Both the position numbers and the translations under genes were made by a program. A DNA stretch of 64,000 nt from Escherichia coli (GTDB taxonomy: Bacteria; Pseudomonadota; Gammaproteobacteria; Enterobacterales; Enterobacteriaceae). This document shows positions 30,852-60,155 of this stretch, piece by piece. Where the stretch lies: NCBI RefSeq assembly GCF_022846255.1, contig NZ_AP025682.1; one strand, written 5' to 3'. The number at the start of each line of letters is the position of its first letter. Position 1 is the first letter of the stretch. The notes beneath the pieces were generated by a model. It saw nothing but the letters and a program-made list of their open reading frames with translations, was not told where the DNA came from and did not search any database.

Positions 30852-31206
30852 TTTACATCTCTCCGCGTAATTACTGTTACGCCTGAATGACTTCATTACA
30901 CCTGATACAGTGAGTTGACACCGGGTAAAACGACCTTAAAAGTCCTGTATTTTACCGTGGGCATCACCCCAGAATTCTGAGCTAAACTGCTCGAGACGGC
31001 GCTAATGTACGCCTAAAACTGAAACGAGACAAGAGGCATTTTCTTATTTACTTTTAGTAACTTACAGGTGTCTCATATCGGCGACAGTTTAATTTCTGAC
31101 GGTAATAATTAGAGATTCAGCGAAGGAAAAAACCTTAAGAAAAAAGCCATAAAAACCATGAGGTTATTATGGCTGATTTGAGGAGGGAAAGAGTAAGAGC
31201 CGTTTG

Positions 31207-43392: not shown

Positions 43393-43396
43393 GTGG

Positions 43397-44011: not shown

Positions 44012-44236
44012 AGATTATTCCCTTTGCAATGAAGCATTTCCCTTCTCCCTGTAGTAATACAGACATAAGGTATCATCTCATTTTCTCAATAAAAATAAGA
44101 AAATTTGAGCTTCCTTTAAGATAATTCGACAAGTATACCATATAAATAGTCGGCATAAATAAAATGTCAACAATAAAATCAGGGATGATACCGATGATTT
44201 ATAGTTTCAAATGAGCACTATAAGTTTTCTCACTAA

Positions 44237-44253
44237 TCCTACAGGCGTAAGAA
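44237..44253. promoter_or_regulatory. candidate EvgA box (imperfect inverted repeat TCCTACA-GG-CGTAAGAA) in the evgA-emrK divergent region
   Basis: Resembles the EvgA consensus as I recall it (TTCYTACA...TGTARGAA). Confidence 0.4.
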
Positions 44254-44426
44254 TTGTATTGCAAAAGCCGCGGTTTAGTCCTCTGTTGTTATTTTTGCAC
44301 TTCATTTAAATTAGCCCTCCAACGTTCCCGGGATAATGTGCAAAACATGCACTGTGTTTGATATGAGGAATGAATACTCTTTTCATTCAATTCATAAATT
44401 TCATCTATGCGAAATGAGAGATAATA

Positions 44427-45590
44427 GTGGAACAGATTAATTCAAATAAAAAACATTCTGACAGAAGAAAATATTTTGCTTTGTTAGCGGTAGTTTTATT
44501 TATTGCGTTTTCAGGTGCCTATGCCTATTGGTCAATGGAATTAAAAGACATGATTAGTACAGATGACGCCTATGTCACGGGAAATGCAGATCCAATTTCT
44601 GCACAAGTCTCAGGCAGCGTCACTGTCGTTAATCATAAAGATACGAACTACGTTCGACAAGGTGACATTTTAGTTTCACTGGATAAAACTGATGCCACTA
44701 TCGCACTCAATAAAGCTAAAAATAATCTGGCAAATATTGTTCGGCAAACGAATAAACTATACTTACAGGATAAACAATACAGTGCCGAAGTCGCTTCAGC
44801 ACGTATTCAGTATCAACAATCTTTAGAAGATTATAACCGTCGTGTGCCTTTAGCGAAGCAAGGGGTTATTTCAAAAGAAGCGCTGGAGCATACCAAAGAT
44901 ACGTTAATAAGTAGCAAAGCGGCATTGAATGCTGCTATCCAGGCTTATAAAGCGAATAAAGCTTTAGTAATGAACACACCATTAAACCGTCAGCCACAAG
45001 TCATTGAAGCTGCAGATGCAACCAAAGAAGCCTGGTTGGCGCTTAAACGTACGGATATTAAGAGTCCGGTTACCGGTTATATTGCCCAGAGAAGTGTTCA
45101 GGTCGGCGAAACAGTGAGTCCCGGACAATCATTAATGGCTGTCGTACCGGCGCGTCAAATGTGGGTTAATGCCAACTTTAAAGAAACACAACTCACGGAT
45201 GTACGGATTGGTCAATCGGTCAATATTATCAGCGATCTTTATGGTGAAAATGTTGTGTTTCATGGTCGGGTGACAGGGATCAATATGGGAACCGGCAATG
45301 CGTTCTCCTTATTACCTGCACAAAATGCGACAGGGAACTGGATCAAAATCGTTCAGCGTGTACCGGTTGAAGTTTCTCTGGATCCAAAAGAACTCATGGA
45401 ACACCCTTTGCGCATTGGTTTATCGATGACTGCAACTATTGATACGAAGAATGAAGACATTGCCGAGATGCCCGATCTGGCTTCAACCGTGACGTCCATG
45501 CCTGCTTATACCAGTAAGGCTTTAGTTATCGATACTAGTCCGATAGAAAAAGAAATTAGCAACATTATTTCGCATAATGGACAACTTTAA
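44427..45590 (+). CDS. emrK: multidrug efflux membrane fusion protein (HlyD family)
   Basis: 387-aa ORF with N-terminal TM, coiled-coil and beta-barrel segments; EmrA paralogue. Confidence 0.88.
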   Translation: MEQINSNKKHSDRRKYFALLAVVLFIAFSGAYAYWSMELKDMISTDDAYVTGNADPISAQVSGSVTVVNHKDTNYVRQGDILVSLDKTDATIALNKAKNNLANIVRQTNKLYLQDKQYSAEVASARIQYQQSLEDYNRRVPLAKQGVISKEALEHTKDTLISSKAALNAAIQAYKANKALVMNTPLNRQPQVIEAADATKEAWLALKRTDIKSPVTGYIAQRSVQVGETVSPGQSLMAVVPARQMWVNANFKETQLTDVRIGQSVNIISDLYGENVVFHGRVTGINMGTGNAFSLLPAQNATGNWIKIVQRVPVEVSLDPKELMEHPLRIGLSMTATIDTKNEDIAEMPDLASTVTSMPAYTSKALVIDTSPIEKEISNIISHNGQL

Positions 45591-47128
45591 TGGCAATCAC
45601 TAAATCAACTCCTGCACCATTAACCGGTGGGACGTTATGGTGCGTCACTATTGCATTGTCATTAGCGACGTTTATGCAAATGTTGGATTCCACTATTTCT
45701 AACGTCGCAATACCGACAATATCTGGCTTTCTGGGAGCATCAACAGACGAAGGCACCTGGGTTATCACCTCGTTTGGCGTAGCAAATGCCATTGCGATCC
45801 CTGTTACCGGCAGGCTGGCACAAAGAATAGGCGAATTAAGGTTATTTTTACTTTCAGTAACCTTTTTTTCGCTGTCTTCATTAATGTGTAGTTTATCGAC
45901 CAATCTTGATGTGCTGATATTTTTTAGAGTCGTTCAGGGGTTAATGGCGGGGCCGTTAATTCCACTGTCACAGAGTTTATTATTAAGGAATTATCCACCA
46001 GAAAAAAGAACATTTGCTCTGGCATTATGGTCAATGACCGTGATTATCGCTCCGATATGTGGGCCGATATTGGGCGGCTATATTTGCGATAACTTTAGCT
46101 GGGGTTGGATATTTTTAATCAATGTCCCTATGGGGATTATCGTCCTGACATTATGCTTAACCTTACTTAAAGGACGAGAAACTGAGACTTCACCGGTCAA
46201 AATGAATCTACCAGGACTGACCCTGTTAGTGCTCGGTGTTGGTGGCTTGCAAATTATGCTTGATAAAGGGCGCGATCTGGATTGGTTCAACTCGAGTACA
46301 ATAATACTACTAACAGTAGTATCAGTTATTTCTCTGATCTCTTTAGTCATTTGGGAGTCGACCTCAGAGAATCCGATTCTTGACCTCAGTTTGTTTAAGT
46401 CCCGTAATTTCACCATTGGTATTGTGAGTATCACATGCGCGTATTTATTTTACTCTGGAGCGATAGTTCTTATGCCGCAGTTACTCCAGGAAACGATGGG
46501 GTATAATGCGATATGGGCCGGACTTGCCTATGCGCCCATCGGTATCATGCCGCTATTAATATCACCTTTGATAGGACGTTATGGCAACAAAATTGATATG
46601 CGGTTGTTGGTGACATTTAGTTTTTTGATGTATGCGGTTTGCTATTACTGGCGTTCTGTGACATTTATGCCAACGATTGATTTTACAGGCATCATTTTGC
46701 CACAGTTTTTTCAGGGATTCGCCGTTGCCTGTTTCTTTTTACCCTTAACAACGATTTCGTTTTCAGGCTTGCCAGATAATAAATTTGCCAATGCCTCGAG
46801 TATGAGTAATTTTTTTCGCACCTTGTCAGGATCAGTTGGTACGTCGTTGACAATGACACTGTGGGGACGCCGCGAATCGTTACACCATAGTCAGTTGACA
46901 GCAACCATCGATCAATTTAACCCCGTGTTTAATTCATCGTCACAAATTATGGATAAATACTATGGTTCGCTTTCAGGAGTTCTTAATGAAATTAATAATG
47001 AAATAACTCAGCAGTCACTTTCTATTTCTGCAAATGAGATTTTCCGTATGGCGGCTATTGCTTTTATCTTACTTACGGTTTTGGTTTGGTTTGCGAAACC
47101 GCCGTTTACAGCGAAAGGCGTTGGGTGA
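45590..47128 (+). CDS. emrY: multidrug efflux MFS transporter (DHA2, 14 TM)
   Basis: 512-aa polytopic ORF; start overlaps the emrK stop (ATGA-type coupling). Confidence 0.88.
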   Translation: MAITKSTPAPLTGGTLWCVTIALSLATFMQMLDSTISNVAIPTISGFLGASTDEGTWVITSFGVANAIAIPVTGRLAQRIGELRLFLLSVTFFSLSSLMCSLSTNLDVLIFFRVVQGLMAGPLIPLSQSLLLRNYPPEKRTFALALWSMTVIIAPICGPILGGYICDNFSWGWIFLINVPMGIIVLTLCLTLLKGRETETSPVKMNLPGLTLLVLGVGGLQIMLDKGRDLDWFNSSTIILLTVVSVISLISLVIWESTSENPILDLSLFKSRNFTIGIVSITCAYLFYSGAIVLMPQLLQETMGYNAIWAGLAYAPIGIMPLLISPLIGRYGNKIDMRLLVTFSFLMYAVCYYWRSVTFMPTIDFTGIILPQFFQGFAVACFFLPLTTISFSGLPDNKFANASSMSNFFRTLSGSVGTSLTMTLWGRRESLHHSQLTATIDQFNPVFNSSSQIMDKYYGSLSGVLNEINNEITQQSLSISANEIFRMAAIAFILLTVLVWFAKPPFTAKGVG

Positions 47129-47235
47129 TGGAAAAAGAGGAGGCTATAGCAGGTAAAACGGCAGAATCTTAAGTCTGCGTCATCGGCAGCATCGCTCACC
47201 CAGGGAAAGGATGGCGATGCTGCGTTGAAACGTTA

Positions 47236-48564
47236 TTAACGGCCTTTTGCCAGATATTGATTCATCTCTTCTTCCGGCACCATTCCACCTCCCGTCGCCC
47301 ACACCAGATGAGTGGCATTACGCAGTTGTTCTGCGCTGAAACCGTGCATCTGTTGGTAACTTACTGATGCGCACACGCGCTGAGACCCGGCCATACCCGC
47401 CAGTGCCGATGGTTCAAGACGAATACCTTCTTCCTGCGCCAGCCAGCCAAGCATGTCATACATGGTTTGATCGCTAAGGGTATAGAAGCCATCCAGCAGA
47501 CGCTCCATCGCCCGCCCGACAAAGCCCGATGCGCGACCAACCGCAAGGCCATCGGCAGCGGTAAGGTTGTCGATGCCAATATCCTGAACAGAAATCTGAT
47601 CGTGTAATCCGGTATGGACGCCTAATAACATACACGGGGAGTGTGTTGGTTCGGCAAAAAAGCAGTGAACATGATCGCCAAACGCCAGTTTAAGTCCGAA
47701 TGCGACGCCACCAGGACCACCGCCAACACCACACGGCAGATAGACAAATAGAGGGTTATCAGCATCGACGATACGGCCTTGCTGGGCAAATTGCGCTTTA
47801 AGACGCTGGCCAGCGACGGAATACCCAAGGAACAACGTGCGGGAATTCTCGTCATCAATAAAGAAACAGTTCGGGTCAGACTGCGCGGCTTTACGTCCTT
47901 CCTCGACGGCAACACCATAATCTTGCTCGTATTCCACGACAGTAACGCCATGACTGCGCAGTTTCGCTTTTTTCCAGGCGCGGGCATCAGCAGACATATG
48001 CACCGTTACTTTAAAGCCGATGCGGGCGCTCATAATACCAATTGATAACCCCAGATTTCCGGTTGATCCCACAGCAATACTGTATTGGCTAAAGAACTGT
48101 TTAAACTCCGGGGAAAGCAGTTTGCTGTAGTCATCTTCAAGCGTCAGCAACCCCGCTTCCAGAGCCAGTTTTTCTGCATGTGCCAGGACTTCATAAATCC
48201 CGCCGCGTGCTTTTATGGAGCCGGAAATAGGCAAATGGCTGTCTTTTTTTAGTAGCAATTGCCCGGCGATCGGTTGTTGATATTCCTTTTCCAGCCGTTT
48301 TTGCATAGCAGGAATAGCAACCAGTTCTGATTCAATAATCCCCCCCGCGGCAGCCGTTTCAGGAAATGCTTTTGCCAGATACGGCGCAAAACGAGACAGG
48401 CGCGCATGGGCGTCCTGAACATCCTGTTCGGTCAGGCCAACATAAGGTAAACCTTCTGCCAATGAGGTCGTGCCAGGATTAAACCAGGTGGTTTCTTTAA
48501 GAGCAACCAGATCCTCTACCAACGGATACTGGGCGATGAGCGAATTCATTTTAGCGTTTTCCAT
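47236..48564 (-). CDS. dsdA: D-serine ammonia-lyase (D-serine dehydratase)
   Basis: 442-aa PLP-enzyme ORF with lysine motif SGSIKARGG. Confidence 0.92.
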
Positions 48565-48581
48565 AGTACGTCTCTTTGCGC

Positions 48582-49919
48582 TTAGATGATAAATGACAGC
48601 AGGAATGTGCCCGCCAGAGCGATGACTGAAGCGATAAATGTCGCTGTCGTATAGTATTTAAATGTTTCATTGAGCGTAGCGCTGCAATATTGCTTCACCA
48701 GCCAGAAAAGCGAGTCTGTCACGATTGTGCAGCCAATTGCGCCCGAACCGATGGCAATTGCAATAATTTCCGGGCTGATGTCGGGATACAGCGGCAGCAT
48801 GGGTGCAACAATTGCCGTTGCCCCCATCATTGCCACCGTAGCGGAGCCCACTGCAGCATGCAGAATAAGTGCCACCAACCAGGCCAGAAGAATCGGGTGC
48901 ATATGCATATTGGAGAGAATAACTGCCAGCGTATCAGCGAGACTGCTGCTTTTTAAAATGGCGTTGAATGCGCCTCCGGCCCCGATAATCAGCAAAATAT
49001 TAGCAATAGAACCGAAACCATTTTCCGTATGTGTGAGCATCGTCCCCATGCTCATATGCTGACGTATACCCAACACATAATAGGCGACAAACACGGCGAT
49101 AAACATGGCAGTGATAGGGTTGCCAATAAACTCAAGCAAGGTATACAAACCACTCTCACGCGCCATATTCAATTCGGCAATCGTTTTCACCAACATCAGC
49201 GCAATGGGCAGCAGTACGGTGAATAACGTTGCGCCTAATGACGGTAGTGTTTTTTCATCGCGAACTTTGAGATCGGCAAACTCTGTGGGTACAGGCTTAA
49301 AGGGCAGTCGTTGACCCAGAAATTTAAGGAAAAGCGGGCCACCGATCAGTGATGCCATCAGCCCAACCAGCAAACCGTAGACGATCACCGAACCGATATC
49401 TGCGCCCAGCTTATTGGCAACATATAAAGCAGCCGGATGTGGAGGAACCACGCAGTGCACTGCCATCAATGCGGTACACAGCGGAATGGCCAGCTTTAAC
49501 AATGAGGTATTGGTTTTTTTGGCAATTGAAAAAGCCAGAGGAATCAATAGTACGACGCCCACTTCAACAAACAGCGTGATGCCGCAAATCAGGCCAACCA
49601 GCACCATAATGACATCAGCCGAAAGCCAGCGGCAGCGCTGAAGTGTCAGACCAATTCTTTCTGCGGCACCGGATACTTCCATCATTTTTCCCAGTATCGT
49701 GCCAAGGCCGATAACCGCAGCGAGGAAACCCAGCGTTCCGCCAATTCCACTTTCAATAGCATTTACCATATCCAGTGGTCCCATACCCATCATCGTTCCC
49801 ACGAAGAAGCTGGCCAGCAACAGCGCCAGAAACGGGTGGAATTTGAACTTCACGATGGTCAGTACAATTAACACGATGCTGATAAGCAGCGTGCTCACAA
49901 CCCAGATTTGAGAGTGCAT
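48582..49919 (-). CDS. dsdX: D-serine transporter (GntP family)
   Basis: 445-aa polytopic ORF upstream of dsdA. Confidence 0.9.
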
Positions 49920-50136
49920 ATCTCACCTTCCCCTGTGATTAACCTGATGATATTGGACAAAAAAACAACGCAGGCTGACAAACGATAAAATTTGCCTTTC
50001 ACATGAGCTAAATTGCATCAAGGGAGTGATTTACATCTAAAAATGAAGGTGAATTGAGATATGGTTCACTTTAGCTCACCTTACAGCTGAAATTTTGCCG
50101 CTATTTTTTTACACTTAAGAGAAAAATGAGGTGATT

Positions 50137-51072
50137 ATGGAACCCCTTCGTGAAATAAGAAATCGACTGCTTAACGGCTGGCAACTATCAAAACTGCATA
50201 CTTTTGAAGTGGCTGCCAGGCATCAGTCCTTCGCTCTCGCGGCAGAGGAATTGTCGCTGAGCCCCAGTGCGGTAAGTCACCGTATCAATCAGCTGGAAGA
50301 AGAATTAGGTATTCAGTTGTTTGTTCGTTCCCATCGCAAAGTGGAATTAACGCACGAGGGGAAACGTGTTTATTGGGCGCTAAAATCGTCGCTGGATACC
50401 CTGAATCAGGAAATTCTGGATATCAAAAATCAGGAGTTATCGGGAACGTTAACGCTGTATTCCCGGCCCTCTATCGCCCAATGCTGGTTGGTGCCCGCAT
50501 TAGGTGACTTTACACGCCGATATCCGTCTATTTCGCTCACCGTGCTCACTGGTAATGACAATGTCAATTTGCAACGTGCCGGAATCGATTTGGCAATCTA
50601 CTTTGATGACGCGCCGTCAGCGCAATTGACTCATCACTTTCTGATGGATGAAGAAATCTTGCCAGTTTGCAGCCCGGAGTACGCTCAAAGACATGATTTA
50701 ACCAACCAGGTAATTAACCTGCGCCACTGTACGTTGCTCCATGACAGACAGGCATGGAGCAACGACTCCGGTACGGATGAATGGCATAGTTGGGCGCAAC
50801 ATTATGCGGTTAATTTGCCGACATCTTCTGGAATTGGCTTTGATCGCTCTGATTTAGCCGTTATCGCCGCGATGAATCATATTGGGGTGGCGATGGGAAG
50901 GAAGCGTCTGGTACAAAAAAGGCTTGCCAGTGGTGAGCTCGTCGCGCCGTTTGGCGATATGACGGTGAAATGCCATCAGCATTATTACATCACCACATTA
51001 CCGGGCAGGCAGTGGCCAAAAATTGAGGCATTTATTACCTGGTTAAGAGAACAGGTAAAAACCACTTCATAA
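50137..51072 (+). CDS. dsdC: LysR-family activator of dsdXA
   Basis: Track ORF 50131..51072 trimmed to Met-3 (311 aa); divergent from dsdX. Confidence 0.88.
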   Translation: MEPLREIRNRLLNGWQLSKLHTFEVAARHQSFALAAEELSLSPSAVSHRINQLEEELGIQLFVRSHRKVELTHEGKRVYWALKSSLDTLNQEILDIKNQELSGTLTLYSRPSIAQCWLVPALGDFTRRYPSISLTVLTGNDNVNLQRAGIDLAIYFDDAPSAQLTHHFLMDEEILPVCSPEYAQRHDLTNQVINLRHCTLLHDRQAWSNDSGTDEWHSWAQHYAVNLPTSSGIGFDRSDLAVIAAMNHIGVAMGRKRLVQKRLASGELVAPFGDMTVKCHQHYYITTLPGRQWPKIEAFITWLREQVKTTS

Positions 51073-51259: not shown

Positions 51260-51460
51260 TTACCCATTGGCGCGGCTTAAGAGCTTATTTTTGAATTCAC
51301 AATGGTCACGATATAACCATCTTGCTCTCCCGTGGATAACTTTGGCTTTTGGCAGGTCGCCGGACTTAATCCGGTCATAGATGAAGGTTTTACCGAAGCC
51401 AGTATCGGCCATGATGAATTTCAAATCAACCAGTGAATCAGGTTGTAGTTCGTGTTGCAT
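51260..51460 (-). CDS. torI: TorI-type excisionase / recombination directionality factor (66 aa)
   Basis: 66-aa ORF MQHELQPDSLVDLKFIMADTGFGKTFIYDRIKSGDLPKAKVIHGRARWLYRDHCEFKNKLLSRANG; matches my recollection of TorI, and is an AlpA/Xis-like winged-helix protein. Confidence 0.8.
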   Translation of the reverse strand: MQHELQPDSLVDLKFIMADTGFGKTFIYDRIKSGDLPKAKVIHGRARWLYRDHCEFKNKLLSRANG

Positions 51461-52266: not shown

Positions 52267-52725
52267 TTATCTGGCAAGCATACGTTGTTGATGCTGTTTC
52301 ACAACACGTAAACGTAAGCTGTCATAGGCCCAATTGTAGAACATGGTATATGGTAGAAAGAAAAGGAAGAATCCTATCTCTAGTGTAAAAGCCTGTAACA
52401 GACTGACGCTCAGAATCCAGGACACCATAATGACGCCGATCGCGATAAATCCACTTTCAAAGCCCAAAGCATGGAATGCACGAACTTTTGCAGTTCGTTT
52501 TACCTGATGAGCAGGCCAGTAGCGATCAAATAGCATGTTATAGATGATATTCCAGATCATTGCAGTTGAAGCCAACAAGATAGTCATCCCGCCCATTTCG
52601 AGTATAGTTCGCTGCATTAACCATGCTGTGGTGGGGGCCAGAATCGCAGTGGCAATTCCTTCAAAGCAAATAGCGTGAAAAATACGCTCAAGTAACGATC
52701 TGTGTTGAATCGCATTATGTTGCAT
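52267..52725 (-). CDS. PACE-family efflux protein (AceI-like; two tandem bacterial-transmembrane-pair repeats)
   Basis: 152 aa, four predicted TM helices, with the signature repeated once per half: ERIFHAICFEG and VRAFHALGFESG (compare AceI RLIHAISYEG / VRILHAIGFEG). Confidence 0.8.
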   Translation of the reverse strand: MQHNAIQHRSLLERIFHAICFEGIATAILAPTTAWLMQRTILEMGGMTILLASTAMIWNIIYNMLFDRYWPAHQVKRTAKVRAFHALGFESGFIAIGVIMVSWILSVSLLQAFTLEIGFFLFFLPYTMFYNWAYDSLRLRVVKQHQQRMLAR

Positions 52726-52828: not shown

Positions 52829-53713
52829 ATGCGTTACTCACTTGAAGCGTTAAGTACATTTGTTGAAGTGGTTTCCTGTGGCTCCTTTTCTGCTGCGGCA
52901 CGAAGATTACGTAAAAGTCAGTCCGCAGTCAGTACGTCAATTGCCAATCTTGAGGTCGATCTTGGTATATCATTATTCGATCGCTCTTCGCGAGAACCTG
53001 TGCTGACAGAGGAAGGAAAGAAAGTATTGAGTTACGTTCATGCGATTTTATCAGCCAGTGAACGTCTTGAGGAGGTGGCGGTTTCGCTTGCCGGAGAGAC
53101 TGAAGCTCGTCTGACGTTTGTGCTTTCCGATACCCTACACCCTGACTTATTAGAAGACATCATGGTGCAGTTTGATAGTCAGTTTCCACATACTGAGTTA
53201 GAGGTTTTAATTGGTGAGGATGTCGATGTCATCGATCTTTTGCAAAAAGAACGAGCGCAGATCGGCTTAATTGAGTCTCGGGAACACTACCCCACCGATA
53301 TTGGCTCAACCCGTTTACCGATGCAAGCGTGGATGGGCATTTATGTTTCGGCGTCACATCCACTGTCTGCAGAAAAAACAATCCAGCGGGAACAACTTCA
53401 TTCATGGCGAGAACTTCGTCTTAATACTTATATCGATAACCGGGAGATGATTGCCCGTGGACCGGTTTGGTCTGCACCTAACTATTTGTTGTTACTCAGT
53501 ATGGCCGTACAGGGATTTGGCTGGTGCTCTCTGCCCTGTGCTCTGGTTGAGGAGTTTGCAACAGAAAAACCGCTGGTTCAGCTCGACGTACCTGGCTGGC
53601 CAAAGGCAATTTCTATCGATCTGCTTTGGAATAAAAAATCGCCACCAGGCGCGGCTGGAAATTGGCTTAAGCATCATTTACAGCATATCAATGCCCCAAA
53701 TAGTCGAACTTAG
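52829..53713 (+). CDS. LysR-family transcriptional regulator (AceR-like), divergent from the PACE gene
   Basis: 294-aa ORF with N-terminal LysR HTH (LEALSTFVEVVSCGSFSAAARRLRKSQSAVSTSIANLE); 103-bp divergent intergenic region. Confidence 0.8.
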   Translation: MRYSLEALSTFVEVVSCGSFSAAARRLRKSQSAVSTSIANLEVDLGISLFDRSSREPVLTEEGKKVLSYVHAILSASERLEEVAVSLAGETEARLTFVLSDTLHPDLLEDIMVQFDSQFPHTELEVLIGEDVDVIDLLQKERAQIGLIESREHYPTDIGSTRLPMQAWMGIYVSASHPLSAEKTIQREQLHSWRELRLNTYIDNREMIARGPVWSAPNYLLLLSMAVQGFGWCSLPCALVEEFATEKPLVQLDVPGWPKAISIDLLWNKKSPPGAAGNWLKHHLQHINAPNSRT

Positions 53714-53834
53714 ATTAGTTAAAATATGGAATCCTGAAATAATCTCTGTTGATATGTGGAGCCATCTTCCAGGCTCCCACCTAAATCATGTTAGCAGTTC
53801 CATTTTTTTGATGATTTCCGCATGAGCATCATCG

Positions 53835-53918
53835 TTATCCCCAGCGACAAATTGAATACAAAACCAGTGCTACCGCCATTGCAATTCCTACCGTTGCGAA
53901 TGCTTCAGGCCAGCTCAT
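53835..53918 (-). CDS. hypothetical 27-aa hydrophobic peptide, start overlaps the stop of the upstream gene
   Basis: ATGA overlap with the 214-aa gene; encodes MSWPEAFATVGIAMAVALVLYSICRWG (single predicted TM helix). Confidence 0.25.
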   Translation of the reverse strand: MSWPEAFATVGIAMAVALVLYSICRWG

Positions 53919-54559
53919 TGATTCACCTCCTGCGGCGGTTCTGGTAGTGGTATCCAGAACAAGGCGTTCCCTAACCACGATAAAGTGCCGTCGCTCAACT
54001 CCACGTATTCCCCTTGCACCTGTCCTGCCATATACTCACCGTGCTTTGAATAAATTAAAATCCAATCATCTTGAGCGGGCATTCGCTCACTACAGCTTAT
54101 CCAACCACCCGGAGTTACCGGAGAGTTGCCGCGTTCTTTAATGTGCAAGCGAGGCTCACCATCTTTTGGTTCAGGCCACTGGCGCTCCATGTTGATCTTC
54201 AATTTATCTTCCATAGCAGCGGTAATTTCAGCATCGCTGATGCCAGCACGGCGCTGTGCATCCCACAACAGGAACTGCATATCAGCCCACTCGCTGAGAT
54301 CGTCTGGTTCGGCTGCGGCTTCCAGAGCCTCTTTTGAGAGGTGTTTCAGTGGACCAATGGGGCCAACGCAGCCAAATGTGGAGTCAGACCATTTGGCATG
54401 CTCGTGGCGAATCTGTTCGCGTTCCAGTGAGGCGAGAGCGATTTTAAATGCTGTAAGCATGTGTGCTTGATCGTTGTCGAGTCCGAATGGCATTTCATCT
54501 CGTGCTGACTCAATACTGGTAATCGTATTTTGTAGCCATTCTTTGGTAAAAGTGCTCAT
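53915..54559 (-). CDS. prophage protein with MazG-like nucleotide pyrophosphohydrolase N-terminal domain (DUF550-like) and DUF551-like C-terminal domain
   Basis: 214-aa ORF; N-terminal acidic helices (EALEAAAEPDDLSEWADMQFLLWDAQRR) and C-terminal DUF551-like segment; common in enterobacterial prophages. Confidence 0.55.
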   Translation of the reverse strand: MSTFTKEWLQNTITSIESARDEMPFGLDNDQAHMLTAFKIALASLEREQIRHEHAKWSDSTFGCVGPIGPLKHLSKEALEAAAEPDDLSEWADMQFLLWDAQRRAGISDAEITAAMEDKLKINMERQWPEPKDGEPRLHIKERGNSPVTPGGWISCSERMPAQDDWILIYSKHGEYMAGQVQGEYVELSDGTLSWLGNALFWIPLPEPPQEVNQ

Positions 54560-54927
54560 CGTAAAATATCCTCTATACTGGTAAGTCCTTCATTATTTAG
54601 CCAGATCATGGCGTCATCCGGCAACTTGCTGTCTGGTTTGGCGTTTTTGAGAGAGGAACTCAGTCGCTTAATCCACATTGTCACCTCAGTAATGCGCCTG
54701 TCTTTGCCTTCCAGCTCAACACGCAGCTTCCCTACTGTTAGCGCAATATCCTCGTTCTCCTGGTCGCGGCGTTTGATGTATTGCTGGTTTCTTTCCCGTT
54801 CATCCAGCAGTTCCAGCACAATCGATGGTGTTATCAATTTATGGAAAAGGTCTGCGTCAAATCCCCAGTCGTCATGCATTGCCTGCTCTGCCGCTTCACG
54901 CAGTGCCTGAGAGTTAATTTCGCTCAC
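54556..54927 (-). CDS. Ead/Ea22-like prophage early protein (123 aa)
   Basis: Acidic coiled-coil protein; start overlaps the stop of the upstream zinc-finger gene. Confidence 0.5.
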   Translation of the reverse strand: MSEINSQALREAAEQAMHDDWGFDADLFHKLITPSIVLELLDERERNQQYIKRRDQENEDIALTVGKLRVELEGKDRRITEVTMWIKRLSSSLKNAKPDSKLPDDAMIWLNNEGLTSIEDILR

Positions 54928-55145
54928 TTCGAACCTCTCTGTTTACTGATAAGCTCCAGATCTTCCTGGCAACTTGCACAAGTCCGACAACCCTGAACGG
55001 CCAGGCGTCTTCGCTCATCTATGGGATCGCCACACTCACAACAATGAGTGGCAGATACAGCCTGGTGGTTCAGACGACGCATTTTTATTGCTGTATTGCG
55101 CTGTAATTCTTCGATTTCTGATGCTGAATCAATGATGTCTGCCAT
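54924..55145 (-). CDS. TraR/DksA-family C4 zinc-finger protein (lambda Orf73-like)
   Basis: 73-aa ORF with CxxC-N17-CxxC (CCECG...CRTCASC). Confidence 0.65.
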   Translation of the reverse strand: MADIIDSASEIEELQRNTAIKMRRLNHQAVSATHCCECGDPIDERRRLAVQGCRTCASCQEDLELISKQRGSK

Positions 55146-55243
55146 CTTCCATTAATCCCTGAATTGTTGGTTAATACGCTTGAGGGTGAATGCGAACAAT
55201 AAAAAAGGAGCCTGTAGCTCCCTGATGATTTTGCTTTTCATGT

Positions 55244-55525
55244 TCACCGTTCCTTAAAGACGCCATTTAACATGCCGATCGCCAGGCTTAAATGAGTCGG
55301 TGTGAATCCCATCAGCGTTACCGTTTCGCGGTGCTTCTTCAGTACGCTACGGCAAATGTCATCGACGTTTTTATCCGGAAACTGCTGTCTGGCATTTTTG
55401 ATTTCAGAATTAGCCTGACGGGCAATGCTGCGAAGGGCGTTTTCTTGCTGAGGTGTCATTGAACAAGTCCCATGTCGGCAAGCATAAGCACACAGAATTT
55501 GAAGCCCGCTGCCAGAAAAATGCAT
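55244..55525 (-). CDS. hypothetical lambda-type early-left protein (start may be the internal Met at 55459, giving 71 aa)
   Basis: Track ORF in the block between the TraR-like gene and exo. Confidence 0.4.
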   Translation of the reverse strand: MHFSGSGLQILCAYACRHGTCSMTPQQENALRSIARQANSEIKNARQQFPDKNVDDICRSVLKKHRETVTLMGFTPTHLSLAIGMLNGVFKER

Positions 55526-55535
55526 TCAGTGGTTG

Positions 55536-55727
55536 TCATACCTGGTCTCTCTCATCTGCTTCTGCTTTCGCCACCATCATTTCCAGCTTTTGTGAAAGGG
55601 ATGTGGCTAACGTATGAAATTCTTCGTCTGTTTCTACTGGTATTGGCACAAACCTGACTCCAATTTGAGCAAGGCTATGTGCCATCTCAATACTCGTTCT
55701 TAACTTAACAGGAGATGCTTTGTGCAT
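55536..55727 (-). CDS. hypothetical lambda-type early-left protein (63 aa)
   Basis: Track ORF; position equivalent to lambda orf63. Confidence 0.4.
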   Translation of the reverse strand: MHKASPVKLRTSIEMAHSLAQIGVRFVPIPVETDEEFHTLATSLSQKLEMMVAKAEADERDQV

Positions 55728-55888
55728 ATCGCCTCCCGTTTATTATTTATCTCCTCAGCCAGCCGCTGGGCTTTCAGTGGATTTTGGATAACAGAAAGGC
55801 CGGGAAATACCCAGCCTCGCTTTGTAACGGAGTAGACGAAAGTGATCGCACCTACCCGGATATTATCGTGAGGATGCGTCATCGCCAT
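55700..55888 (-). CDS. hypothetical lambda-type early-left protein (62 aa)
   Basis: Track ORF directly after exo; position equivalent to lambda orf60a. Confidence 0.35.
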
Positions 55889-56559
55889 TGCTCCCCAAAT
55901 ACAAAACCAATTTCAGCCAGTGCCTCGTCCATTTTTTCGATGAACTCCGGCACCATCTCGTCAAAACTCGCCATGTACTTTTCATCCTGCTCAATCACGA
56001 CATAATGCAGGCCTTCACGCTTCATCCGCGGGTCATAGTTAGCAAAGTACCAGGCATCTTTTCGTGTCACCCACATGCTGTACTGCACCTGGGCCATGTA
56101 AGCCGACTTTATGGCCTCGAAACCACCGAGCCGGAATTTCATGAAATCCCGGGAGGTAAACGGGCATTTCAGTTCAAGGCCGTTGCCGTCACTGCATAAA
56201 CCATCGGGAGAGCAGGCGGTGCGCATACTTTCGTCGCGATAGATGATCGGGGATTCATTAACATTCACGCCGGAAGTGAACTCAAAGAGGGCTCTGGCGT
56301 CGTTCTCGTACTGTTTTCCCCAGGCCAGCGCCTTAGCGTTAACTTCCGGAGCCACACCGGTGCAAACCTCGGCAAGCAGGGTGTGGAAGTAGGACATTTT
56401 CATGTCAGGCCATTTCTTTCCGGAGCGGGGTTTTGCTATCACATTGTGAACTTCTGAAGCGGTGATGATGCCGAGCCGTAATTTGTGCCATGCATCATCC
56501 CCCTGTTCGACAGCTCTCACGTCGATCCCGGTACGCTGCAGGATAATGTCCGGTGTCAT
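55879..56559 (-). CDS. exo: lambda-type 5'-3' exonuclease (Red-alpha)
   Basis: 226-aa ORF near-identical to lambda Exo as I recall it ([30 protein letters not shown]...). Confidence 0.93.
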
Positions 56560-57341
56560 GCTGCCACCTTCTGCTCAGTGGCTTTCTGTTTCAGGAATCC
56601 AAGAGCTTTCACTGCTTCGGCCTGTGTCAGTTCTGACGATGCGCGAATGTCGCGGCGAAATATCTGGGAACAGAGCGGCAATAAGTCGTCATCCCATGTT
56701 TTATCCAGGGCAATCAGCAGAGTGTTAATCTCCTGCATGGTTTCATCGTTAACCGGAGTGATGTCGCGTTCCGGCTGACGTTCTGCAGTGTATGCGGTAT
56801 TTTCGACAATGCGCTCGGCTTCATCCTTGTCATAGATACCAGCAAATCCGAAGGCCAGACGGGCACACTGAATCATGGCTTTATGCCGTAACATCCGTTT
56901 GGGATGCGACTGCCACGGTCCGGTGATTTCTCTGCCTTCGCGGGTTTTGAATGGTTCGCGGCGGCATTCATCCATCCACTCGGTAACGCAGATAGGATGA
57001 TTGCGGTCTTTGCGGTAAATCCGGCATGTGCAGGATTCGTTGTCCTGTTCAAAGTCCATGCCGTCAAACTGCTGGTTTTCGTTGATGATGCGGGACCAGC
57101 CATCAACGCCCACCACCGGAACGATGCCGTTCTGCTTATCAGGGAAGGCGTAAATTTCTTTCGTCCACGGATTAAGGCCGTATTGGTTGGCGACGATCAG
57201 CAATGCGATGAACTGCGCATCGCTGGCATCGCCTTTAAATGCTGTCTGGCGAAGAGTGGTGATCAGTTCCTGTGGGTCGACAGAATCCATGCCGACACGT
57301 TCAGCCAGCTTCCCAGCCAGCGTTGCGAGTGCTGTACTCAT
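56556..57341 (-). CDS. bet: lambda-type single-strand annealing protein (Red-beta)
   Basis: 261-aa ORF near-identical to lambda Bet; start overlaps exo. Confidence 0.93.
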
Positions 57342-57346
57342 CCGTT

Positions 57347-57643
57347 TTATACCTCTAAATCAATATCAACCTGGTGGTGAGCAATGGTTTCAACCATGTA
57401 CCGGATGTGTTCTGCCATGCGCTCCTGAAACTCAACATCGTCATCAAACGCACGGGTAATGGCTTTTTTGCTGGCCCCGTGACGTTGCAAATGATCGATG
57501 CAGAGCGATTCAAACAAATGCTGGGGCAGACCCTTTTCCAGGTCGTCTGCCAGTTCTGCCTCTTTCTCTTCACAGGCGATCTGCTGGTAGTGACGCGCCC
57601 AGCTCTGAGCCTCAAGACGATCCTGAATGTAATAAGCGTTCAT
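57347..57643 (-). CDS. gam: RecBCD inhibitor Gam
   Basis: 98-aa ORF near-identical to lambda GamS ([21 protein letters not shown]...). Confidence 0.9.
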
Positions 57644-57718
57644 GGCTGAACTCCTGAAAATGGCTGTGAAAATATCGCCCGCGAAATGCCAGGCTGATTA
57701 GGAAAACAGGAAAGGGGA

Positions 57719-58009
57719 TTAGTGATTCAGGCCGTTACCGCGTCCGTCGAGAAAAACTTCCACGAGCAAATCACGGGTATAAGTGCGCTCGATGCCGCGA
57801 TGCAGATATAGCCGTCCGCGTAAATTAGCTGATGCAGTCCAGGTACCATCTTTGTGTTTGACCAGCATTCCTGGCATGACCGCACCGCGATTAACGGTCT
57901 GCGTTCCGTAATGTTGATGAACCATAAAAACTCCTGCCCGTAAGCTGGGCTGCTGAACATATAGAGACTTCTGCGCGTATTCAGGCGGTGGATGGCCGCC
58001 GGTTGTCAT
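57719..58009 (-). CDS. hypothetical protein (96 aa), first ORF of the leftward early operon
   Basis: Track ORF preceded by a GAGG ribosome-binding site; matches nothing I recognise from lambda (not N, Kil or CIII). Confidence 0.45.
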
Positions 58010-58059
58010 AACTAAGCCGCCTCGTTGAAGCGACTAAGGTATGAAATGTTGAGTTGATT

Positions 58060-58210
58060 TCAGCTGGTCACACCGACGTTCACGCGTCCGTTTCACCCCT
58101 CGCACTCCCCGAAGCCTGCTGAAATTCAAACTGCGGATCTAAGCGGTCATCGCAACGGTGAATCAGGTGGTTGCCGTATCGTTGTGTTGTTGCGATGAAC
58201 TTATTTAAAA
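58060..58210 (-). ncRNA. structured 5' leader of the leftward early transcript (two long inverted repeats); candidate cis-acting regulatory RNA
   Basis: 9-bp perfect inverted repeat CATCGCAAC/GTTGCGATG (58159-58167 / 58200-58208) and 8-bp inverted repeat ATTTCAGC/GCTGAAAT (58068-58075 / 58129-58136), between the predicted pL and the 96-aa ORF. Confidence 0.3.
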
Positions 58211-58213
58211 CTA

Positions 58214-58256
58214 TAGTTGTTTTATCGTCAACAACAAAAGTTGTTTTATTGGTTGT
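58214..58256 (-). promoter_or_regulatory. candidate pL with overlapping operators (-35 TTGACG, 17-bp spacer, -10 TTAAAT; palindromes AACAAC-N4-GTTGTT and TAAAAC-N7-GTTTTA)
   Basis: Minus-strand hexamers at 58237-58242 and 58214-58219; this cassette is almost a copy of the pR cassette at 59252-59287. Confidence 0.5.
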
Positions 58257-58383
58257 TTTAGATATAACTGGTTGTATTTAGGATGGATTTATTTTGTGAC
58301 TTGAATCGCATAGCGATAACTGAAGCGAGGTTATGGTGGTTTTTTTAACGGTGTGTGTGATGAGGGGAGGGCAAAAGAAAACC

Positions 58384-58410
58384 CGGCACGGTGACCGGGA
58401 TTCTTACGCC
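58384..58410 (-). terminator. rho-independent terminator downstream of the repressor gene
   Basis: Minus-strand hairpin cccggtcaccgtgccggg followed by TTTTCTTTT. Confidence 0.6.
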
Positions 58411-58520
58411 GTTAGGTAAAGATATTATTGCGGTGGCTTAATATTACTACCTAGAGCAAAGATAGGAATTAGTTCTTTACTGAATGAGCACAATGCCCAG
58501 TTGATAATTTTTAATTGGTA

Positions 58521-59210
58521 CTACCCATGCTTCCTATATGTCTGCGGCATGCTCCCAATAACCTTACCGAAGATGAACACCCGGTTCATCTCGTCTTTCT
58601 CGATCGGGTCCCACGGTGAGTAGCTTTTGTTATCAGAGATGACCAGCAGCTTATCCTTCATCATTTGCAGGCGCTTTACATGGGCTGTGTCGTCGTACAG
58701 AAACGCATAGATACCATCACCGTCGAAAGATTTAACTGTGATATCAACGAACAGCAGATCACCTGGTTCGATCGTTCCTGACATGCTGTCACCACGCACG
58801 TTAATGATGCGGATATTTTCCGCCTTCCTACCATCGAACATGTGACGAGCATCGTCAAACGAGTACTCAACCGAGCGTAGAACTTCTACAAACTCACGGT
58901 TGATGACTCCCGGCCCAGCACTGACTTCTATATCAAGAACGTCAATCTTAAAGTATTTGGAATGGCTGACAGTTGATAGTATTGGTTGCACTGTACTGTC
59001 TGACATATTTCCAACGCCAGAAGATAACCATTCTGCGCGCACACCCAAAGCGTTCGCGATCTCCACGATTTTAGTTGTTTGATTAGCTTTCCCTGTTTCG
59101 ATTTTCTGAATAGCAGCCTGGCTAACCCCGACCAAATCCCCAAGCGCCTTTTGTGTAAGGCCTCGCGCTAATCTGGCTTCTTTAAGTCTTTCTGAGAGTG
59201 TTGTTTTCAT
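58521..59210 (-). CDS. cI: CI-like prophage repressor (XRE-type HTH plus S24 LexA-like peptidase domain)
   Basis: 229 aa from the Met at 59210 (track ORF extends to 59273); HTH LTQKALGDLVGVSQAAIQKIE; C-terminal GDSM...K autocleavage-type domain; start lacks a Shine-Dalgarno, consistent with a leaderless pRM-type mRNA. Confidence 0.85.
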   Translation of the reverse strand: MKTTLSERLKEARLARGLTQKALGDLVGVSQAAIQKIETGKANQTTKIVEIANALGVRAEWLSSGVGNMSDSTVQPILSTVSHSKYFKIDVLDIEVSAGPGVINREFVEVLRSVEYSFDDARHMFDGRKAENIRIINVRGDSMSGTIEPGDLLFVDITVKSFDGDGIYAFLYDDTAHVKRLQMMKDKLLVISDNKSYSPWDPIEKDEMNRVFIFGKVIGSMPQTYRKHG

Positions 59211-59216
59211 AGTCCA

Positions 59217-59287
59217 AATGTACAACCAAGGTTTTATTCCATCAAACGAAAATGGTTGTTGACTAAAAAACAACCATAGTTTTAATC
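59217..59287. promoter_or_regulatory. cI-cro divergent control region: candidate pRM (minus; -35 TTGATG, -10 TACATT), pR (plus; -35 TTGACT, -10 TTAATC) and operator palindrome ATGGTTGTT-N8-AACAACCAT
   Basis: 26-bp palindrome 59252..59277 overlapping the pR -35; pRM -10 ends 7 bp before the cI ATG. Confidence 0.5.
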
Positions 59288-59315
59288 TTGATTCAAATTA
59301 ACCACGGAGGTTGTT

Positions 59316-59546
59316 ATGAACCCAGCTATCAAAACAGCGATCAATATCGTTGGTTCACAAAAGAAACTGGGCGCTGCTTGCGAAGTTTCACAGCAGGCCG
59401 TCTATAAGTGGCTTCACAACAAAGCAAAGGTATCCCCTGAACATGTCGGCAGCATTGTTACGGCTACTGGTGGAGTAGTGAAGGCATACCAGATTCGCCC
59501 GGATCTTCCGAAGTTGTTTCCACACACCGAAAAGAACGCAGCTTAA
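59316..59546 (+). CDS. cro: Cro-like repressor (76 aa)
   Basis: Small HTH protein divergent from cI with a GGAGG ribosome-binding site. Confidence 0.7.
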   Translation: MNPAIKTAINIVGSQKKLGAACEVSQQAVYKWLHNKAKVSPEHVGSIVTATGGVVKAYQIRPDLPKLFPHTEKNAA

Positions 59547-59615
59547 ATTTCCATTTCACGCTCTTTAACAATAAGCAATCAACTTAACAGTCAATTCAAA
59601 CTAAAGGAGTCAATT

Positions 59616-60155
59616 ATGCAACCACTTACATACCAACAGACTAGCGGATTTAGCCCGACTGCGGTGATAAATCGTTCTCAAACAAAACAGGCGCCAGGCC
59701 ACGAAAAAATCCGTGATGCCGTTCGCGCCTGGTCGGCTGCAGATAATCAGGATGTTGTTGCCGCACTCATTGTGAATGAGTATCGGGAGCAGGGCGGCGG
59801 CACCATCGATTTCCCTGATGATGTCAGCCGTGCACGCCAGAAGCTGTTCCGCTTCCTCGATAACAAATTCGATTCTGAAAAATACCGAAATAACGTGCGT
59901 GAACTGACCCCGGCAATTCTGGCGGTACTACCGCTGGAATATCGCGGCCACCTGGTTGAGCAGGATAGCTTCATGGCTCGGTTGGCTGAAATGGATAAGG
60001 AACTCAGTGAGGCAAAGCAGGCGGTCATTCTCAACGCACCACGCCACCAGAAACTGAAGGAAATGAGTGAAGGTATTGTGTCGATGTTTCGTGTGGACCC
60101 GGATCTGGCTGGTCCATTAATGGCGATGGTTACCACCATGCTGGGGGCAATATGA
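59616..60155 (+). CDS. CII-like phage regulatory protein (CP76-type, 179 aa)
   Basis: Position between cro and O; family assignment is from memory and uncertain. Confidence 0.45.
   Translation: MQPLTYQQTSGFSPTAVINRSQTKQAPGHEKIRDAVRAWSAADNQDVVAALIVNEYREQGGGTIDFPDDVSRARQKLFRFLDNKFDSEKYRNNVRELTPAILAVLPLEYRGHLVEQDSFMARLAEMDKELSEAKQAVILNAPRHQKLKEMSEGIVSMFRVDPDLAGPLMAMVTTMLGAI

Follow-up and report, generated by a model that had tools for sequence, protein, structure and literature searches.

A lambda-type exo-xis early block with a TraR-family zinc-finger protein and internal terminator-like hairpins in an Escherichia coli prophage

The 64,000-nt stretch of E. coli DNA analysed here (the window) carries a block of small early genes on its minus strand at 54924-55888. 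Its upstream boundary is exo (55879..56559, minus strand), which encodes a 226-aa lambda exonuclease near-identical to lambda Exo (Pfam YqaJ, E=2.7e-30). The downstream boundary is a gene for a 123-aa Ea22-like protein (54556..54927, minus strand; Pfam Ead_Ea22, E=1.2e-21), whose GTG start overlaps the stop codon of orf73 (GTGA). Between these two genes we found, all on the minus strand, a 62-aa orf60a homologue of the DUF1317 family (55700..55888; Pfam E=2e-38), which aligns to lambda orf60a and whose start overlaps the exo stop, a 63-aa orf63 homologue of the DUF1382 family (55536..55727; Pfam E=1.7e-30, lambda alignment), the full-length 71-aa form of orf61 (55244..55459, with its ATG at 55459; PHROG 303, E=1.5e-35) and orf73 (54924..55145), which encodes a 73-aa TraR-family C4 zinc-finger protein. 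A sequence-only reading of this DNA had placed four small minus-strand ORFs between exo and the Ead-like gene, and all four have the limits that it gave them. Its count was nevertheless too low, as the chain actually consists of six coupled ORFs, including one of 27 and one of 29 codons.

The same reading had described the block as a lambda-type early-left region, which agrees with our alignment. Compared with lambda and phage 434, the window shows 98% mean column identity over ~1020 nt of DNA, and the order exo, orf60a, orf63, orf61, orf73 and ea22 on one strand matches that of lambda. Positional equivalence to lambda orf60a, orf63, orf61 and orf73 is therefore exact. Substitution patterns were also determined: in orf60a we counted 18 synonymous to 19 nonsynonymous changes in frame compared with 9:28 and 8:29 off frame, in the 71-aa frame of orf61 14:12 compared with 5:19 and 6:19, and in orf73 17:6 compared with 5:18 and 2:21. 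Judged by these data, the ORFs of the block are homologous genes rather than chance ORFs. With 90-99% identity, the exo-xis block occurs in 183 records of a phage collection search as well as in E. coli genomes by the thousand; it is among the most widely distributed cassettes of E. coli lambdoid and Stx prophages. By its sequence, the region at 54924-55888 is the already known set of lambda-type exo-xis early genes in an E. coli prophage.

An unannotated hydrophobic ORF of 27 aa, MTTTECIFLAAGFKFCVLMLADMGLVQ (55456..55539, minus strand), was read from the sequence and is also found in lambda, at about 30925-31008. It sits between orf63 and orf61 and shares ATGA overlaps with the stop of the former and the start of the latter. 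Among 46 distinct sequences it showed 9 synonymous and 4 nonsynonymous changes in frame, whereas the other frames gave 1:12 and 2:11 (Fisher p=5e-4), a pattern that looks like that of a coding sequence. The ORF is annotated neither in lambda, 434 or 21 nor in the RefSeq E. coli records. RefSeq-style annotation hence misses this coding-like ORF and usually also the hairpin-bearing ORF of 29 aa described below. orf61 itself is annotated with 216 nt in RefSeq E. coli, 434, 21 and PhiR34_1. A mechanically called 93-aa ORF (55244-55525) was considered as orf61 and rejected, as its extension frame (2:11) is not coding-like, and the 71-aa gene is likely. The Pfam match of this longer ORF to Viral_DNA_Zn_bi (E=0.0097) was below the cutoff and was regarded as noise.

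The prophage that contains the block belongs to the PhiR34_1/DLP12 type and has dsdC as its neighbour at the insertion site. It encodes a cI-like repressor (58521-59273) and possesses cro, cII, O and P. A candidate pL with two operators is located at 58203..58245 on the minus strand; the promoter, TTGACG-17-TTAAAT, was identified by eye at 58231-58203, and the operators lie at 58206-58221 and 58230-58245. A strict consensus promoter scan did not pick up this candidate. Another by-eye sigma-70 promoter, TTGACG ... TATAGT, has a spacer of only 10 nt and was dropped in its favour. The palindrome AACAAC-N4-GTTGTT is present at OL and, in three copies, at OR, and a 45-nt inverted repeat with 80% complementarity links OL and OR. 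The block thus appears to follow a pL under repressor control, with which it shares its orientation, and, by analogy, is probably expressed from it. Loss of the cI-like repressor would start leftward transcription from pL through kil, gam, bet and exo, and the transcript would then cross the coupled orf60a, orf63, 27-aa ORF, orf61, 29-aa ORF, orf73 and ea22-like gene.

Alternatively, the block might be a silent relic of a decaying prophage without function in this strain. The closely related soil E. coli strain SC434 carries the same block in a degraded prophage, in which gam borders directly on a truncated P gene, an IS3 element has inserted in the vicinity and the gene for the Ea22-like protein has become a pseudogene. 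Likewise, where the prophage studied here ends on the left, the window contains no integrase gene. However, none of the ORFs of the chain is disrupted in the window, the substitution patterns are those of purifying selection, and the prophage has the repressor, the operators and cro, cII, O and P. In addition, its left end is closed by a TorI-type excisionase, and PhiR34_1, a viable phage, is arranged in the same way. We therefore consider a relic highly improbable.

The 73-aa protein had been proposed to carry the C4 zinc finger of TraR/DksA-type proteins, and Pfam, sequence motifs, PDB matches and predicted fold agree on this. Orf73 matched zf-dskA_traR (PF01258) with 35.4 bits (cutoff 24.9, E=1e-8) and PHROG 54 with E=3e-26. 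The match to TIGR02419 covered positions 1-64 of the 64-position profile (E=6e-15) and with 55.6 bits remained just under the cutoff of 59.7. The homologue in strain SC434, WP_000763370.1, is named 'TraR/DksA family transcriptional regulator' in RefSeq. Alignment to lambda Orf73 and TraR had been set beforehand as the check on which the proposal could fail; Orf73 is identical to lambda Orf73 at 71 of 73 residues (97%) and to F-plasmid TraR at 32% over 62 residues (E=2e-9). The two differences from the lambda protein, I30V and V49A, are conservative and lie outside the motifs listed next. The DxxDxA motif is present as M-A-D3-I-I-D6-S-A8, the putative zinc ligands C35/C38/C56/C59 (CxxC-17-CxxC) align with C37, C40, C58 and C61 of TraR, and R46/R47 are the equivalents of TraR R48/R49. 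In an 84-member family alignment C35, C38, R46, C56 and C59 are invariant, while conservation reaches at least 90% at D6, A8, I42, R47 and G52.

TraR in the PDB was already matched by the Orf73 sequence, whereas DksA was not matched by this single sequence at E<=1. The profile of the family alignment, in which TraR itself is one of the 84 rows, matched TraR (E=6e-22), YbiI (2e-17) and DksA, the latter at residues 90-148 (E=3e-6). Since a single-sequence AlphaFold model of Orf73 (pLDDT 59) was too poor for a fold search, it was replaced by an AF2 model based on the same alignment. This model reached a pLDDT of 85.3 and has helices at 3-22, 44-49 and 57-70. Its best PDB match in Foldseek was RNAP-bound TraR, 6n57_M (TM 0.67/0.68, probability 1.00, E=2.9e-3, rmsd 2.9 over 70 columns), followed by YbiI, TraR 5w1s and DksA. 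The predicted fold is TraR-like, with a long N-terminal helix, a Zn globule and a C-terminal helix in ~70 aa and no coiled coil.

Gopalkrishnan et al. (2022, PMC9239242) reported that lambda Orf73 binds RNA polymerase in competition with DksA, switches off the promoters of rRNA and r-protein genes in the absence of ppGpp (IC50 ~50 nM on rrnB P1) and complements a dksA null strain. In their study the DxxDxA motif was required for activity in both TraR and lambda Orf73, D3 and D6 mutants of the latter were inactive, and TraR R48/R49 were described as contacting the rim helices and beta'Si3. Carried over from the 97%-identical lambda protein, binding of RNA polymerase and inhibition of rRNA promoters would be expected for Orf73 of the window as well. 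Its N-terminal helix with DxxDxA would reach down the secondary channel, while the Zn-finger globular domain and the C-terminal helix would contact the rim helices, beta'Si3 and betaSi1. Orf73 would inhibit rRNA and ribosomal-protein promoters independently of ppGpp, and this shutdown would slow the host and free resources for a higher phage yield.

An increase in burst size of 3- to 4-fold by lambda Orf73 was indeed reported (PMC9239242), although an earlier study, as discussed in that paper, found phage yield to be decreased, and not increased, by orf73. Assays of the Wegrzyn laboratory class orf73 and ea22 as pro-lysogenic (PMC8614690), and work cited in PMC9239242 implicates orf73, ea22, ea8.5 and orf55 in blocking the initiation of host replication. 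Thus, the main role of Orf73 might be pro-lysogenic or lie in cell-cycle control, as part of the 'bin' function by which host DNA replication is kept from initiating, instead of a higher lytic yield through the shutdown of ribosome synthesis. On the other hand, the direct biochemical target of Orf73 is RNA polymerase, dnaA mRNA was barely affected, and in-frame as well as point mutants cut the burst size 3- to 4-fold (PMC9239242). We consider such a main role unlikely. Nevertheless, the two views are compatible, since shutting down rRNA synthesis could itself lead indirectly to a block of replication.

Two terminator-like hairpins lie within the chain. The first, t1, is located inside orf60a (55796..55818, minus strand; GAGGCUGGG-UAUUU-CCCGGCCUU followed by UCUGUUAUCC) and has 9 pairs, 6 of them GC. 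Its fold is strong (-17.6 kcal/mol, z=-3.7) and was matched by none of 200 shuffles. t1 is probably the classical lambda terminator tL3, which goes back to Luk & Szybalski 1982 and is also part of the lambda segment of pKD46. Annotation of tL3 is absent from both lambda GenBank records, and among the matches listed in a plasmid collection search there were no Red helper plasmids that would delimit it. According to the literature, pKD46 keeps the 'native terminator tL3' after exo. The sequence of t1 is identical to the t1 published by Bloch et al. (2014, PMC4195576).

The second hairpin, t2 (55197..55223, minus strand), had been placed between orf61 and orf73 at about 55181-55200. A terminator-like hairpin does exist between these genes, but the true stem-loop is at 55205-55223, 5-40 nt upstream of that position. 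It reads AGGGAGCU-ACA-GGCUCCUU and is followed by UUUUAUUG down to 55197. The arms 55216-55223 and 55205-55212 form 8 pairs (4 G-C, 2 A-U, 2 G-U) around the 3-nt loop ACA, and the U-rich tail (55197-55204) begins with a U run directly after the stem. Moreover, the spacing between orf61 and orf73 is not empty but occupied by a conserved ORF of 29-31 aa, so that t2 lies inside an ORF in mid-operon, whereas an intrinsic terminator would be expected in untranslated RNA where a transcription unit ends. This ORF, MKSKIIRELQAPFLLFAFTLKRINQQFRD (55152..55241, minus strand), has 29 aa, or 31 aa if it starts from the GTG at 55247. It is annotated as CDS in phages 434 and 21 and, as far as the ribosome profiling is presented in PMC8614690, is probably the 31-aa 'orf2313' of lambda, which would lie at lambda 30620-30715. 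Its substitutions (5:6 in frame compared with 2:9 and 3:8) gave p=0.17. Formation of t2 would normally be opposed, as the hairpin is inside a probably translated ORF.

The proposed partial insulation by t2 repeats a published suggestion, and its terminator activity is presumed by analogy. Bloch et al. already predicted t2 as a terminator and proposed that it lowers orf73 and ea22 mRNA of lambda (PMC4195576). In a reading that we rate as less probable, t2 does not work as a terminator; it would result from what the 29-aa ORF encodes (RELQAPFLLF) or be at most an mRNA-stability element, and orf73 expression would vary through translation coupling, RNA decay or a weak promoter of its own. The hairpin is weak, with 6-8 pairs including G-U and -8 to -10 kcal/mol, and folded at -10.2 to -10.5 kcal/mol; the z=-2.2 of its 46-nt fold is unremarkable, and 9 of 200 shuffles folded as well. 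Besides, in 29 of 60 related sequences the second base of the stem is U (G-to-U), which shortens the stem to 6 pairs, and the embedding ORF is annotated in two phages and probably translated in lambda. In Phi24B, which has the identical t2 sequence, orf73 and ea22 mRNA was not lowered, and a promoter, p1, is predicted to overlap the T tract (PMC4195576). Yet the core of t2, GGAGCUACAGGCUCC, and T6 are invariant in 60 of 60 related sequences, the geometry with a 3-nt loop and immediate U run is classical, and in lambda qRT-PCR the mRNA of orf73, ea22 and ea8.5 was lower downstream of t2 (PMC4195576). Furthermore, the predicted p1 is a poor promoter whose -35 matches at 3 of 6 positions; in the window its -10 is TATTGT instead of TATTAT, and it did not pass the consensus scan. 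The conservation of t2 is inseparable from that of the whole cassette, which is 95-99% identical among the 60 sequences, because the relatives are all at least 90-95% identical; a search for covariation in 80 IMG/VR loci and in a distant-mode phage search, with relatives of 90-100% identity, found no compensatory changes. A simple scan detected 13 terminator-like sites in 5 kb compared with 5.1 +/- 2.3 in shuffles, and the pattern is thus not rare.

The lambda operon is N/nut-antiterminated, and N-modified polymerase is expected to read through t1 and t2 there. Here, in contrast, there is no N-like ORF between pL and kil, and PhiR34_1 likewise lacks one. For a put-like element, no BLAST similarity was detected to the HK022 segment 19000-30000, which comprises the nun-cI interval according to the ORF listing and should contain putL. 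The pL and pR leaders share no element except the operators, the pL leader does not fold better than shuffles (z=-0.35), and there were no Rfam matches in 53000-60000. As the prophage is without an N gene, t1 and t2 may matter more here than in lambda. The strong t1 in orf60a and the weak t2 between orf61 and orf73 would most likely reduce but not abolish distal transcription, and in N-less prophages two internal terminators could set an expression gradient along the leftward operon.

A more speculative option, which we regard as quite improbable, is that t2 is a translation-sensitive attenuator in the translated 29-aa ORF coupled to orf61 in this N-less prophage. Ribosomes close behind the polymerase would cover the 5' half of the stem and let the polymerase read on into orf73, the ea22-like gene and eventually TorI; with lagging translation the hairpin would form and cut off the distal genes. 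If this held true, the dose of an RNAP-reprogramming protein and of an excision function would be tied to the translational state of the host, and t2 would complement the fixed attenuation at t1/tL3 with no processive antitermination overriding either.

Taken together, the locus is very probably best explained as the exo-xis module of a leftward early operon, with Orf73 as an RNA polymerase inhibitor; t1 and t2 would most likely lower distal transcription. A mechanism for the zinc-finger gene is already published, the hairpins are in print as predictions, and the value of the block lies in little beyond its correct annotation.

In comparison with lambda, the gene overlaps of the exo-xis region are the same, and the hairpin sequences of t1 and t2 are equal except for one base in the tail of t2. 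orf61 is intact with 71 aa here, whereas the lambda reference alone carries an extra A (A7 instead of A6) that shifts the frame and truncates the gene; it is a frameshifted oddity and unsuitable as a model for orf61. The first ~73 residues of the Ea22-like protein match lambda Ea22 with two substitutions, but then the sequences diverge, and the protein is shorter with a different C-terminus. Further downstream, lambda has ea8.5, orf55, xis and int, while this prophage has a dATP/dGTP pyrophosphohydrolase-DUF551 protein, LysR and PACE cargo and TorI. Lambda Orf73 (Orf2310) and Orf73 of the window have all six cysteines, DxxDxA and the RR pair in common. F-plasmid TraR (PDB 5W1S, 6N57) also has 73 aa and shares with Orf73 the DxxDxA helix, CxxC-17-CxxC, the arginine pair and the C-terminal helix. 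In contrast to TraR, Orf73 has two extra cysteines, C36 and C53, and ExxRL instead of ExxRK, and is encoded among phage early genes and not in a conjugative transfer operon. Lambda Orf73 inhibits promoters like TraR, but its activation is weak, if any (PMC9239242). With DksA (PDB 1TJL), Orf73 has in common the C4 zinc-finger domain and, by homology, the site in the secondary channel of RNA polymerase; however, it is half the size of DksA, lacks the coiled coil and would act without ppGpp.

An ORF listing gave an uninterrupted chain of genes on the minus strand at 54556-56559. It consists of exo (55879-56559; Pfam YqaJ, E=2.7e-30), orf60a (55700-55888; DUF1317, E=2e-38), orf63 (55536-55727; DUF1382, E=1.7e-30), orf61 (mechanical ORF 55244-55525), orf73 (54924-55145; zf-dskA_traR, 35.4 bits against a cutoff of 24.9) and an Ea22-like gene (54556-54927; Ead_Ea22, E=1.2e-21). 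In a three-way DNA alignment of the window, lambda (NC_001416, 30349-31369) and phage 434, mean column identity was 98%. The same 965 nt are carried at 90-99% identity by 183 phage records, the majority from lambda-like and Stx-converting phages, as well as by most complete E. coli genomes. The sequence-only reading had placed four small ORFs between exo and the Ead-like gene as equivalents of lambda orf60a, orf63, orf61 and orf73, and the Pfam, alignment, phage and genome matches show this assignment to be correct. The exo-xis block as such is already described in the literature. The Ea22-like protein shares its first ~73 residues with lambda Ea22 apart from two substitutions and then diverges, and it is shorter (123 aa compared to 182 aa in lambda).

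The same block was also seen in a degraded prophage of the closely related soil isolate SC434 (NZ_LR778142, 11486-15172), where a truncated P gene is abutted by gam, the gene for the Ea22-like protein has become a pseudogene and there is an IS3 close by. Moreover, three PLSDB "plasmids" from unrelated hosts (NZ_CP082339, Salmonella; NZ_CP104294, Stenotrophomonas; NZ_CP068597, Paenibacillus) match the block, all at 96.5% identity. At 48,499-48,502 bp they are nearly identical in length to the lambda genome, and assembly of lambda control DNA as plasmids is their probable origin.

The 73-aa product had been read as a TraR-like C4 zinc-finger protein, which our analysis bears out. Window Orf73 has just two substitutions relative to lambda Orf73 (I30V and V49A), and BLASTP aligned it to F-plasmid TraR with 32% identity over 62 residues (E=2e-9); a phmmer search of PDB sequences found YbiI and TraR. 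Among representatives clustered at 50% identity, 584 relatives were found at E<=1e-3, 82 of which were aligned with the Orf73 query and TraR. In these 84 rows the zinc cysteines C35, C38, C56 and C59 as well as R46 are invariant, conservation reaches 90% or more at D6, A8, I42, R47 and G52, and the consensus begins with MxDxxDxA. They match the elements to which Gopalkrishnan et al. assign functional importance in both TraR and lambda Orf73: the DxxDxA motif, the zinc site CxxC-17-CxxC and the equivalents of R48/R49 (2022, mBio, PMC9239242). The alignment profile matched TraR (6e-22), YbiI (2e-17) and DksA (3e-6) in the PDB, the TraR match partly by construction since TraR is one of the rows. 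The match to TIGR02419, the TraR subfamily model, spans the whole profile (E=6e-15), with a score of 55.6 bits that falls short of the 59.7 cutoff. An alignment-based AlphaFold model (mean pLDDT 85) was closest in Foldseek to RNA polymerase-bound TraR (6n57_M; TM 0.67, rmsd 2.9, 70 columns), followed by YbiI, TraR 5w1s and DksA. A single-sequence model was too poor for use.

Both the TraR homology of Orf73 and the demonstration of its mechanism have been published before. Donaldson et al. modelled lambda Orf73 on RNA polymerase (2021, PMC8614690), and later the purified protein was shown to bind at the DksA/TraR site, to inhibit rrnB P1 without ppGpp (IC50 ~50 nM) as well as rpsT P2, and to complement a dksA null strain, while D3/D6 substitutions abolished its activity (PMC9239242). 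Made from pL, it slowed host growth, and phage yield after induction was 3- to 4-fold higher with it; promoter activation was weak, if any, possibly due to two extra cysteines (PMC9239242). Since window Orf73 keeps all six cysteines and both substitutions are conservative, its mechanism would obviously be expected to be that of lambda Orf73.

A terminator-like hairpin separating orf73 from the other ORFs had been proposed as well, with partial insulation within the operon. The hairpin exists, yet it had been misplaced by roughly 20 nt: by sequence and pattern scan, its minus-strand stem pairs 55216-55223 with 55205-55212 around an ACA loop, followed by a U-rich tail to 55197. This hairpin, t2, folds at -10.2 kcal/mol (z=-2.2; 9 of 200 shuffles fold equally well), and in a simple scan terminator-like patterns were common (13 sites in 5 kb compared to 5.1 expected). 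Its core, GGAGCUACAGGCUCC, and the T6 do not vary in 60 related sequences, 29 of which have U as the second stem base, leaving six pairs. However, the whole cassette is 95-99% identical throughout the relatives examined, so that this conservation is not creditable to the hairpin and covariation is not testable. The predicted terminator and the same insulation idea are already in the literature: Bloch et al. predicted t2 with ARNold in lambda and Phi24B and ascribed lower orf73, ea22 and ea8.5 mRNA in lambda to it, yet Phi24B has the identical t2 sequence without the mRNA drop (2014, PLoS One, PMC4195576). A weak promoter overlapping the t2 T tract was predicted in the same study.

The hairpin t1 at 55796-55818 on the minus strand, inside orf60a, is much stronger than t2 (-17.6 kcal/mol, z=-3.7). 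We take it to be, probably, the classical tL3 terminator, which is kept after exo in pKD46. Bloch et al. list it alongside t2 (PMC4195576).

A minus-strand ORF of 29 aa (55152-55241; 31 aa from a GTG at 55247) occupies the space from orf61 to orf73, and t2 lies within its codons (RELQAPFLLF), a position that may make t2, if it terminates at all, sensitive to translation of this ORF. Phages 434 and 21 both carry a CDS annotation for this ORF, which is probably the 31-aa lambda "orf2313" detected by ribosome profiling (PMC8614690); in the same numbering Orf73 is Orf2310 (PMC9239242). Its substitutions are 5 synonymous to 6 non-synonymous, compared to 2:9 and 3:8 in the other frames, and the upstream start is ATG, GTG or GTA, whereas no variation occurs at the second ATG. 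Between orf63 and orf61, a 27-aa hydrophobic ORF (55456-55539, minus strand) shares one ATGA overlap with the stop of orf63 and another with the start of orf61. Across 46 distinct sequences it has 9 synonymous to 4 non-synonymous substitutions, compared to 1:12 and 2:11 in the other frames (Fisher p=5e-4), and this pattern looks like that of a coding sequence. Annotations of lambda, 434, 21 and RefSeq E. coli all lack it. The window copy carries I14K, which is rare among relatives.

One of the compared frames corresponds to the N-terminal extension carried by the 93-aa ORF and by orf61 as annotated in lambda. Since this frame appears non-coding beside the 27-aa ORF, orf61 is likely the 71-aa protein starting at 55459, the form annotated in 434, 21, PhiR34_1 and RefSeq. 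The 61-aa lambda orf61, which Donaldson et al. found truncated-looking (PMC8614690), results from a frameshift by an extra A in an A6 run (A7; about 3370-3380 in L001, our lambda record, equivalent to window about 55395). Only two lambda records among 69 sequences have the extra A; in the other 67, where orf61 encodes a 71-aa protein, the run is six bases long (A6; AAAAAT in the window).

Directly after the Ea22-like gene lies a dATP/dGTP pyrophosphohydrolase-DUF551 fusion gene (53915-54559, minus strand). Between it and two small phage genes, divergently transcribed genes for a LysR regulator (52829-53713, plus strand) and a chlorhexidine-type PACE efflux protein (52267-52725) lie within the early-left arm and look like cargo (moron) genes. 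The two small phage genes, leftward of the PACE gene, precede a 66-aa excisionase at the prophage left end (51260-51460, minus strand), which we take to be TorI-type from the K-12 TorI sequence. The host genes dsdC, dsdX, dsdA, emrY, emrK, evgA and evgS (39799-51072) adjoin it, which on the K-12 map places the prophage at the KplE1/CPS-53 site next to dsdC. No integrase was found at this end in the window; it presumably lies at the far prophage end, outside the window.

Going rightward, gam (57347-57643) and a Kil-family gene (57719-58009) are followed by a leader of roughly 190 nt and an operator/promoter region, OL, in which the palindrome AACAAC-N4-GTTGTT occurs at 58206-58221 and 58230-58245. 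A cI-like repressor gene (58521-59273) and three matching operators (OR, 59245-59315) come next, then cro, a cII-like gene, O and P in this order; an inverted repeat of 45 nt is made up by OL and OR together. The N gene is absent from the immunity region at 57650-59320, where no put-like or nut-like element was detected either. Searches for antitermination elements gave neither an Rfam match nor any similarity to the put region of HK022, and no element common to the leaders of the pL and pR transcripts was found. The same gene layout, cI-kil-gam-bet-exo-orf63-orf61-TraR, is seen in the viable phage PhiR34_1. If processive antitermination is truly absent, all leftward transcripts would be subject to t1 and t2, in contrast to lambda.
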